DNA from: a virus
Taxonomy: Duplodnaviria > Heunggongvirae > Uroviricota > Caudoviricetes
Length of the DNA stretch: 11,941 nucleotides
Reading direction: 5' to 3' (one strand)
Virus record (IMG/VR): IMGVR_UViG_2648501400_000008
The notes under the pieces are model-generated. The model saw only the letters and a program-made list of their open reading frames with translations. It did no database searches and was not told the DNA's origin. Each line of letters opens with the position of its first letter. Within the stretch, counting starts at the first letter, position 1. Shown in pieces: positions 6,150-7,033 of this stretch. The position numbers and the translations under genes were made by a program.

Positions 6150-6202
6150 AAGATAAAATGAAGTTGCGCATTATGCAAGTGTTTTTGTTGCGAGATATGC
6201 AA
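6150..6202 (-). promoter_or_regulatory. Putative pL promoter with oL operators
   Basis: Two 15-bp dyad sites TTGCGCATTATGCAA (6164-6178) and TTGCGAGATATGCAA (6188-6202) spaced 24 bp apart, sharing the pattern TTGCG-N6-GCAA with an oR site. On the minus strand a -35-like TTGCAT (6173-6178) and -10-like TATCTT (6150-6155) are 17 bp apart. Confidence 0.45.
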
Positions 6203-6210
6203 TTTAAAGG

Positions 6211-6237
6211 GTAATGAAAAGCCACCTTTGGGTGGCT
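6211..6237 (-). terminator. Candidate intrinsic terminator of the cI-like gene
   Basis: GCCACC / GGTGGC stem with TTTG loop (6221-6236), 21 bp 3' of the cI stop; on the minus strand it is followed by TTTTCATTAC. Confidence 0.45.
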
Positions 6238-6257
6238 AATTGATGAGGAGGTAAGGG

Positions 6258-6950
6258 TTAATTGTGTCGCTTAAGGGTTTGTGACTGGCTGATTAAGACC
6301 TTTCCAAAGACCATAAACCGGTGTTCATTTTCGCTGGTAATTCCCCATTCACGGTAAATCTGGTTATCAGAAATCACCAGTAGTTTGTCAGGTATCATTT
6401 GCAGTCGTTTGACATAAATTTTATCATCAAAACCAAATACATAGATACCATCTCCATCAAACTGATTGATACTGACATCAACGAAGATGAGATCTCCTGG
6501 CTCAATGGTTGGACACATACTGTCCCCACGAACGTTGATAACTTTAATGTGATTGGCTGGCCGTCCGCCAAACATCGATACAGCATTATCAGTTCTGTAT
6601 TCAATGGCATGAATCACATCAATGACATCACCGCCCTGGATAAGGCCATTTCCCGCACTGGCACTGACATCCAGCATTTCAATACGGAATACATCCTTCA
6701 CCTGCGCAACATCCTCACTAATACTGTTTTTACATACAGTATTACTTTTGACGTCTGAGGTAAAGAGATCAGCAATATCAACACCTAAGCTCCTGGCAAT
6801 ATTACTCAGGGCTTGTTCAGTGAATTGTTTCTGCTTACCTGTTTCCAGGCGTGAGATATTCGCCGCATCCACTCCTATTGCTTCAGCGAGATCGGCGATT
6901 TTCATGTTCTTCGCCTGGCGAAGTTGTCTGACTCGGTTTCCTATGTTCAT
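6258..6950 (-). CDS. cI-like prophage repressor: N-terminal XRE-type HTH plus C-terminal S24 (LexA-like) peptidase domain (230 aa)
   Basis: N-terminal RVRQLRQAKNMKIADLAEAIGVDAANISRLETG is a classic XRE HTH; the C-terminal half (…INVRGDSMCPTIEPGDLIFVD…VKRL…) has the Ser/Lys autoprotease pattern. There is no strong ribosome-binding site, consistent with a leaderless pRM-type transcript. Confidence 0.9.
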   Translation of the reverse strand: MNIGNRVRQLRQAKNMKIADLAEAIGVDAANISRLETGKQKQFTEQALSNIARSLGVDIADLFTSDVKSNTVCKNSISEDVAQVKDVFRIEMLDVSASAGNGLIQGGDVIDVIHAIEYRTDNAVSMFGGRPANHIKVINVRGDSMCPTIEPGDLIFVDVSINQFDGDGIYVFGFDDKIYVKRLQMIPDKLLVISDNQIYREWGITSENEHRFMVFGKVLISQSQTLKRHN

Positions 6951-6956
6951 GCGTTT

Positions 6957-7033
6957 ATTACATTTCTTTATTGCGCGTTAAGCAAATCAACTTGCGCAAA
7001 ATATTTGCGTGAAATAATATGCTCATCACGCAA
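6957..7033. promoter_or_regulatory. oR operator cluster with divergent pRM/pR promoters
   Basis: Three dyad elements at about 24-bp spacing: TTGCGCGTTAAGCAA (6971-6985), CGCAAAATATTTGCG (6995-7009) and ATGCTCATCACGCAA (7019-7033). pR: -35 TTGCGC (6992-6997), 17-bp spacer, -10 TAATAT (7015-7020). pRM on the minus strand: -35 TTGCTT (plus 6980-6985), 17-bp spacer, -10 TGTAAT (plus 6957-6962). Confidence 0.55.

Follow-up and report, generated by a model that had tools for sequence, protein, structure and literature searches.

Putative operators of an mEp460/SfII-type lambdoid immunity module and their probable recognition by its own cI and Cro repressors

The window analyzed here is the entire 11,941-nucleotide stretch of IMG/VR record IMGVR_UViG_2648501400_000008, a Caudoviricetes sequence that contains the immunity module of an mEp460/SfII-type lambdoid Escherichia coli prophage. 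The module is built around two divergent repressor genes, cI and cro, and around short inverted repeats (dyads) that lie between them and beyond the end of cI. On the minus strand, positions 6258–6950 encode a cI-like repressor of 230 amino acids. Pfam places a Cro/C1-type helix-turn-helix (HTH) domain at residues 3–64 (HTH_3, PF01381, and related HTH families) and a C-terminal Peptidase_S24 domain at residues 104–218 (PF00717, E = 6e-19). The recognition helix reads A-N-I-S-R-L-E-T-G-K-Q-K, and in an alignment of six homologues A30, N31, S33, R34, and E36–K41 are invariant, as are Ala99-Gly100, Ser144, and Lys181. From the LexA-like S24 domain and these invariant residues, self-cleavage at Ala99-Gly100 with Ser144/Lys181 is predicted. 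On the plus strand, positions 7048–7308 encode an 86-residue Cro-like lytic repressor, also of the HTH_3 family (Pfam). Its recognition helix is A-T-L-S-R-I-E-R, and the LSRIER motif is kept in the Cro homologues of most related loci. The two genes are separated by 97 bp. An Rfam search of the region at permissive thresholds gave no match.

An earlier note on this DNA had described a shared 15-bp pattern on both sides of cI, and three sites match TTGCG-N6-GCAA exactly where it placed them. The first two form the left operator (oL): oL1 (TTGCGCATTATGCAA, 6164–6178) and, 24 bp away and upstream of the leftward promoter pL, oL2 (TTGCGAGATATGCAA, 6188–6202). The third, O-a (TTGCGCGTTAAGCAA, 6971–6985), is the cI-proximal site of the right operator (oR). 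These are the only exact matches on both strands of the 11.9-kb window, compared with a mean of 0.24 in shuffled sequences, and three were reached in one of 200 shuffles. The note's related site at 7019–7033, here called O-c (ATGCTCATCACGCAA), also holds up; it differs by one mismatch from TTGC-N7-GCAA. Across the window, this pattern with one mismatch is not enriched (12 found, 9.1 expected). We then applied a weight matrix built only from the sites of relatives, and its four best hits in the window were oL1, oL2, O-a, and O-c (scores of 21.0, 17.7, 17.6, and 15.6, respectively), all above the 95th percentile of shuffled-window maxima (13.7). No third oL site rose above noise in the matrix scan of the window, so oL comprises two sites. 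A candidate over the cI start (6949–6963) scored 9.9, which is at chance level, and was rejected. Two further elements of the right operator are described below, namely, O-b (6992–7006), a middle element that is only a half-site here, and O-d (7069–7083), a candidate fourth operator inside cro.

To place these dyads in an evolutionary context, we compared the locus with its relatives in two ways. The protein-first set comprised cI homologues of 54–97% identity, taken from phages and from one genome per species, the genomes being scanned with the peptide ETGKQK[QS]F. It spans Salmonella, Klebsiella, Citrobacter, Kluyvera, Buttiauxella, Trabulsiella, Pantoea, Mixta, Dryocola, Rosenbergiella, Proteus, and Serratia. 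Across its 27 non-redundant loci, dyads that differ from TTGCG-N5-CGCAA at no more than two positions recur at fixed offsets from the cI start: at the position of O-a in 23 loci, of O-b in 14, of O-c in 23, and of O-d in 20. The background in the same loci is 42 matches in 85,419 positions, or approximately 0.013 expected per fixed position. Most relatives also carry two further dyads, 22–24 bp apart, past the cI terminator. In a gapless stack of the cI-cro regions, the half-site columns are conserved and the centers are variable, with the consensus CATgcg...ATTacAt......ttTTGCgtg.tatGCAAA.caAcTTGCGCAA....c..g.....aaTAatATGCg.A.taCGCAA. O-c begins with A in almost every relative, since this base also belongs to the -10 hexamer of the rightward promoter pR.

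The DNA-first scan searched IMG/VR with the skeleton TTGC-N7-GCAA-N6-TTGCGCAA-N20-TGC-N7-GCAA alone and returned at least 120 contigs; the matches listed provide the 94 distinct oR variants referred to below. Among the matches listed, a divergent HTH open reading frame lies next to O-a in 118 of 120, at an identical distance in 113, and 116 of these 118 encode the helix N-I/V-S-R-L/V-E-T-G-K-Q-K. The motif is thus kept together with the repressor HTH in related phages, both across genera and in the DNA-first contigs, which is the test that the earlier note had named. In the remaining two listed contigs, the cI helix is G-N-L-S-R-(L/I)-E-R-(D/G)-V-Q-G-Y, which is of the Cro type and hints at an exchange of helices between the two repressors of one switch. 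In these loci, cI and Cro share an S-R-(I/L)-E core, as do repressor/Cro pairs that read common operators.

The dyads coincide with putative promoters, whose placements rest on conservation. For pR, on the plus strand, a -35 hexamer TTGCGC (6992–6997) and a -10 hexamer TAATAT (7015–7020) are separated by a 17-bp spacer, with a predicted start near 7027; the Shine-Dalgarno sequence of cro, GGAGG, follows at 7039–7043. For pRM, the minus-strand promoter of cI, the -35 hexamer TTGCTT (6980–6985) lies in O-a, and a 17-bp spacer leads to the -10 hexamer TGTAAT (6957–6962) and a predicted start near 6950. Similarly, pL reads leftward on the minus strand toward yfdP, with the -35 hexamer TTGCAT (6173–6178) formed by the right half of oL1, a 17-bp spacer, the -10 hexamer TATCTT (6150–6155), and a predicted start near 6143. 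Accordingly placed, O-c covers the pR -10/+1 region (from the final two bases of the -10 through the predicted start), O-b the pR -35, O-a the pRM -35 and spacer, and oL1 the pL -35 and spacer. Among the listed variants, the pR -10 is TAATAT, TAACAT, TAAAAT, or TATTAT in 91 of 94, its last T being fixed by the DNA search pattern, and the pRM -10 (ATTACA) is present in 81 of 94, with CAT at a fixed distance in 89. The pR -35, inside the octamer TTGCGCAA (6992–6999), is nearly invariant in the independently ascertained protein-first set, and a TAxxxT hexamer lies equally far from oL1 in most relatives. Because 6 nt separate the end of the pRM -10 from the cI ATG, which lacks a Shine-Dalgarno sequence, a leaderless cI mRNA is likely. 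A leftward candidate at 7041–7014 from a consensus scan was set aside, since the conserved TGTAAT 6 nt before that ATG fits better.

The module is also exchanged as a unit. Phage cdtI and an e14-type (ymfK/ymfT) prophage match the window at 87–97% identity as far as 6122 and once more from 7273 onward; the intervening immunity cassette (6123–7272) holds pL/oL, the terminator, cI, oR, and most of cro. The right junction at 7273 lies within the 3′ end of cro, a short way ahead of the GTG start of a CII-like gene at 7301. Between the junctions, the cdtI and e14-type cassettes carry unrelated cI/cro genes and dyads of their own (GTACC...GGTAC-like), and no TTGCG-N5-CGCAA dyad was found in them. 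Since the motif travels with the repressor genes, it fits an immunity specificity. The note's proposal of a distinct specificity is supported in that the motif is absent from heteroimmune cassettes and the cI protein is only approximately 41% identical to a lambda-type repressor. Collectively, we consider it probable (roughly 0.85), from sequence comparison, that the dyads are the operators of a lambdoid immunity module of the mEp460/SfII/Stx2a_1447 type and are bound by its own cI and Cro. The recognition sequence would differ from that of lambda, and the dyads look like the basis of a separate immunity specificity.

The dyad inside cro, O-d (GTGCGTAAGGCGCAC, 7069–7083), occupies codons 8–12 of the gene, at approximately +43 to +57 from the predicted pR start, and has a matrix score of 10.6. 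Although O-d is absent from the DNA search pattern, a dyad within two mismatches is present in 88 of the 94 listed variants, 49–52 bp downstream of O-c, and is perfect in 22; in many it is the best match to the consensus in the locus. Phage Flotzy carries a perfect copy, TTGCGAAAATCGCAA, inside cro, as does a Klebsiella relative. The codons that encode it are unusually restricted. Leu8 is TTG in all 17 loci with Leu at that position, while Leu5 and Leu16 use TTA, CTN, or TTG; of the 24 homologous Cro genes, 22 encode Arg9 by CGN and the two of the Rosenbergiella loci by AGA, while Arg6 mixes AGR and CGN; at codon 11, all 13 Ser codons are TCG and all 6 Ala codons are GCG. At Arg9 and Lys10, the third codon positions coincide with the operator center and are freely variable. 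This codon choice therefore points to selection on the DNA sequence. The window keeps the TGCG-N5-CGCA core but has other bases at both outer positions; the site in the clade of the window is GTGCGTAAGGCGCA(C/T), and it may be weakened there. Taken together, the right operator may have four parts, with a consensus-strength site in cro codons 8–12, approximately 50 bp past the pR start, fixed by rare codons (TTG, CGN, TCG, and CAA), and with both that site and the middle operator weakened in the lineage of the window; we hold the odds of this proposal to be about even. If true, O-d would add a layer that the lambda paradigm lacks, as a repressor roadblock, as an anchor for looping, or as a site of Cro autoregulation.

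The same data bear on the rival explanation that survives best, in which the dyads divide their roles: only some would be cI operators, O-d would be kept for another reason such as an RNA hairpin or coding, and the everted palindrome or the half-sites might be specific to Cro or bound by a host factor. Several observations agree with it, since positions 7068–7084 were flagged as a terminator-like hairpin on the plus strand, the outer O-d pair changes from T/A to G/C in the window with pairing kept, O-d lies in the conserved helix-1 region of Cro, and its distance from O-c varies over 49–52 bp, which argues against strict helical phasing. However, in a set of 34 distinct O-d variants, no covariation is seen in the four inner pairs, which simply keep the operator consensus, and the outer positions often fail to pair, being T/T in seven variants and T/C in five; an RNA hairpin as the reason for O-d was rejected on these grounds. 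The rare synonymous TTG and TCG codons, fixed at the half-sites while other codons serve for the same residues nearby, and the frequent rank of O-d as the strongest match also speak against this rival. We therefore regard this division of roles as doubtful, though it deserves more weight than the alternatives that follow.

A less probable alternative concerns the layout of oR. It would be a strict copy of lambda, with three equal 15-bp operators at a 24-bp spacing (6971, 6995, and 7019), together with oL and pairwise cooperativity. The three positions are indeed arithmetically 24 bp apart, and the middle one, 6995–7009, is a perfect 15-bp palindrome whose TTGCG at 7005–7009 recurs in 31 of the 94 listed variants, window included. 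In addition, the right operator as a whole (6969–7035) is a 67-bp imperfect palindrome centered on 7002 with 72% complementary arms, so that pR and pRM are near mirror images. However, the palindrome CGCAAAATATTTGCG, which the earlier note had counted as a related site, is CGCAA-N5-TTGCG: its half-sites are everted, it has the opposite polarity, and it fits none of the eight specified TTGC/GCAA positions, so a symmetric dimer reading TTGCG-N5-CGCAA could not contact it alike. Moreover, the middle dyad of relatives, TTGCGCAAnnCG(C/T)(T/A)A, stands at O-a + 21 bp, that is, at 6992–7006. In the window, only its left octamer TTGCGCAA is conserved, and the right half, AATATTT, has five mismatches in five positions. 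This right half is bimodal among the listed variants, with one mismatch in 29 and five in 30, and TTGCG at 7005–7009 occurs as an alternative to the full right half (29 of 94). The everted palindrome thus arises from the presence of that TTGCG. A host LacI/PurR-type box at 6995–7009 was also considered and rejected, as its center is of odd length without a central CG and the element is lineage-specific. Likewise, a 29-bp dyad at 7005–7033 (TTGCGTGA-N13-TCACGCAA) was taken as chance because its extended arms are lost even in SfII.

The 24-bp spacing that the note had assigned to both sides of cI therefore stands for oL but not for oR, where the intervals are 21 and 27 bp. This oR spacing is rigid across genera, whereas the oL sites of relatives are 22–24 bp apart; 21 bp between O-a and O-b corresponds to two helical turns, and 27 bp between O-b and O-c to 2.6 turns. 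The distance from oL to oR is approximately 820 bp. Similarly, the lambda logic of OR1-3 and OL survives in that half-sites lie on conserved -35-like hexamers of the putative pR, pRM, and pL, but the locus is not a faithful copy: a layout of three oR and three oL sites at approximately 24 bp does not hold, given the 21 + 27 bp intervals, the middle half-site, the two oL sites, and the extra site in cro. A strict lambda copy is accordingly very unlikely. As a separate observation, two Dryocola loci (L021 and L024) carry an extra tandem dyad approximately 21 bp past O-c and have no cro homologue at the usual place; they may represent a rearranged or decayed switch.

Finally, the idea that the dyads have no operator function, being chance products of TTGC-type -35-like hexamers in A+T-rich promoter DNA, can draw on the resemblance of each half-site to the start of TTGACA, on the three half-sites that coincide with putative -35 hexamers, and on the unenriched one-mismatch pattern, but it is hardly credible given that the exact pattern is more than tenfold enriched and confined to two regulatory regions, that both dyad halves are kept at fixed positions across genera while their centers drift, that the motif is missing from heteroimmune cassettes with promoters at corresponding places, and that one site lies inside a coding region.

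Several points weigh against the assignment of the dyads as cI/Cro operators. The literature searched yielded neither a definition of these operators nor data on binding, footprints, or transcription starts for this repressor; a comparison of SfIV and SfII names only cI and cro (PMC3851460), and in a 2022 survey that sorts the CI proteins of Shiga toxin (Stx) phages into eight clades, the target sequences are mostly undefined (PMC8951638). A PDB sequence search with cI and Cro returned only remote HTH and UmuD matches, the best at E ~1e-4, and no close solved structure that could serve as a shortcut to the specificity. The putative promoters match only approximately 8 of 12 consensus positions, and the consensus scan called none of them. 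O-d ranks fifth by matrix in the window and is not above chance on that score alone, and O-b is only a half-site in the lineage of the window. Furthermore, O-a scores at least as well as O-c, the reverse of the lambda cI order OR1 > OR3, so occupancy need not follow the lambda order, and the logic may differ. Last, the conservation of the helix in the protein-first set results partly from selection, because the peptide ETGKQK[QS]F served as the query; this is offset by the DNA-first scan, which started from the DNA skeleton alone.

With the dyads read as operators of their own repressors, a working model can be drawn by analogy with the lambda, 434, and P22 paradigms. Dimers of the cI-like protein would read 15-bp TTGCG-N5-CGCAA dyads through the outer bases, leaving the center free, and Cro probably recognizes the same dyads because its helix shares the S-R-I/L-E core. 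In the lysogen, cI on O-c and on the O-b half-site would occlude the -10/+1 and -35 regions of pR and thereby keep cro, cII, and replication off, while cI on oL1 and oL2 (6164–6202) would occlude pL. On O-a, at the pRM -35, cI might limit its own synthesis, or the site might be the route by which Cro shuts off cI. Transcription from pRM would probably yield the leaderless cI mRNA. O-d, strong in relatives and weakened here, would probably act as a downstream roadblock, a loop partner, or an element of Cro autoregulation. RecA-stimulated self-cleavage of cI at Ala99-Gly100 (Ser144/Lys181) would then lift repression and lead to induction.

Compared with lambda, the switch has the same divergent cI/cro arrangement, a cI made of an HTH and a self-cleaving S24 domain (the cleavage being predicted here), dyads that overlap pR, pRM, and pL with a weak middle site on the pR -35, an oL cluster just past cI, a likely leaderless cI mRNA, and an exchangeable module. 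By position, O-a takes the place of OR3 and O-c that of OR1. In contrast to the operators of lambda, which are 17-bp TATCACCGC-type sites, those proposed here are 15-bp TTGCG-N5-CGCAA dyads. The intervals of oR (21/27 bp), the two oL sites, and the fourth site in cro also differ, as do the repressors and their neighbors: cI is only approximately 41% identical to a lambda-type repressor, Cro is HTH_3 only (Pfam) rather than of the lambda Cro fold, CII belongs to the CP76 type of phage 186, and there is no evident N gene.

The likeness to P22 and 434 is closer at the protein level. In those phages, as here, both repressor and Cro belong to the HTH_3 family and their recognition helices are related, and the operators combine conserved outer bases with a variable center that is not contacted (the contacts here being putative). 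The cI protein is approximately 42–43% identical to the P22-type C2 over its full length, and the closest PDB matches of its DNA-binding domain include a 434-derived domain (E = 2e-4). By protein type, then, the comparisons place the switch closer to P22/434 than to lambda. The recognition helix and operator are nevertheless different from theirs; P22 half-sites are of the ATTTAAG type and those of 434 of the ACAA type. The Stx phage 933W likewise has a lambdoid switch in an E. coli prophage, with an unrelated specificity; its OL contains only two repressor sites, like oL in the window. For an operator inside a cro-like gene, lactococcal TP901-1 offers a lead only: its CI binds OR, OL, and OD, with OD inside the cro-like gene or downstream of its start. 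The TP901-1 repressor is unrelated, lacks S24, has another oligomeric state, and belongs to a phage of a Gram-positive host.

An intrinsic terminator of cI (6220–6237, minus strand; terminator scan) lies between the cI stop and oL2; it is annotated likewise in phage SfII, and its hairpin and T-run are kept in relatives. Because of this terminator, the oL sites fall just past the end of the cI transcript, which is the place of oL in lambda. On the other side, a gene for CII of the phage 186 type (CP76, PF06892; 7301–7858, plus strand; Pfam) begins with a GTG that overlaps the 3′ end of cro, and the gene content of the window shows no evident N gene. The repressor of mEp460 is 99.6% identical to that of the window, and its GenBank annotation (locus 5360–6007 in mEp460) begins at Met16, giving 215 amino acids. 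Met1 at 6950 is the likely start, because the first 15 residues (6906–6950) belong to the HTH domain and are conserved in different genera.

Between the putative pL and the yfdP homologue, which is the first leftward gene, approximately 600 nt (5537–6143, minus strand) contain no convincing open reading frame and are left unannotated by the Prokaryotic Genome Annotation Pipeline (PGAP). Positions 5690–5885 are homologous to sRNA-17, a 193-nt small RNA (sRNA) of E. coli K1 RS218 (PMC7719688), with 27 of 30 positions matching at 5732–5761, and the homologue ends in a terminator-like hairpin (approximately 5701–5741) and a U-run. Because it is located past pL and has a terminator-like end, sRNA-17 may represent the pL leader, terminated or processed and controlled by cI, rather than a stand-alone, host-regulated sRNA. 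Moreover, approximately 120 nt (5749–5867) are 86–93% identical to unannotated DNA in thousands of E. coli genomes, including many prophages of other immunity types, and this segment appears to be a non-coding element that early-left operons widely share.

The module is common. Among 5,426 complete E. coli genomes, 911 contain at least 80% of 5500–7400. The DNA of 5900–7400 is 96–98% identical to phages mEp460, PhiR63_1, phiSTEC1575-Stx2k, and Stx2a_1447/WGPS2 and 91% identical to Shigella phage SfII, and the same type of cI is found in the Stx2a phages 1447 and WGPS2. The immunity type therefore occurs in approximately one-sixth of complete E. coli genomes, in the Shigella serotype-converting phage SfII, and in some Stx2a/Stx2k toxin phages. 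Collectively, the locus very probably holds a switch of the ordinary lambdoid kind with its own, so far uncharacterized recognition sequence. The operator consensus would allow prophage immunity typing, the prediction of superinfection exclusion, and the design of reporters or decoys for induction, including the release of Shiga toxin. It would also supply the target for one of the CI clades left without one in the 2022 survey of Stx phages (PMC8951638). The operator inside cro would be a small departure from the textbook switch and would leave the understanding of such switches unchanged.

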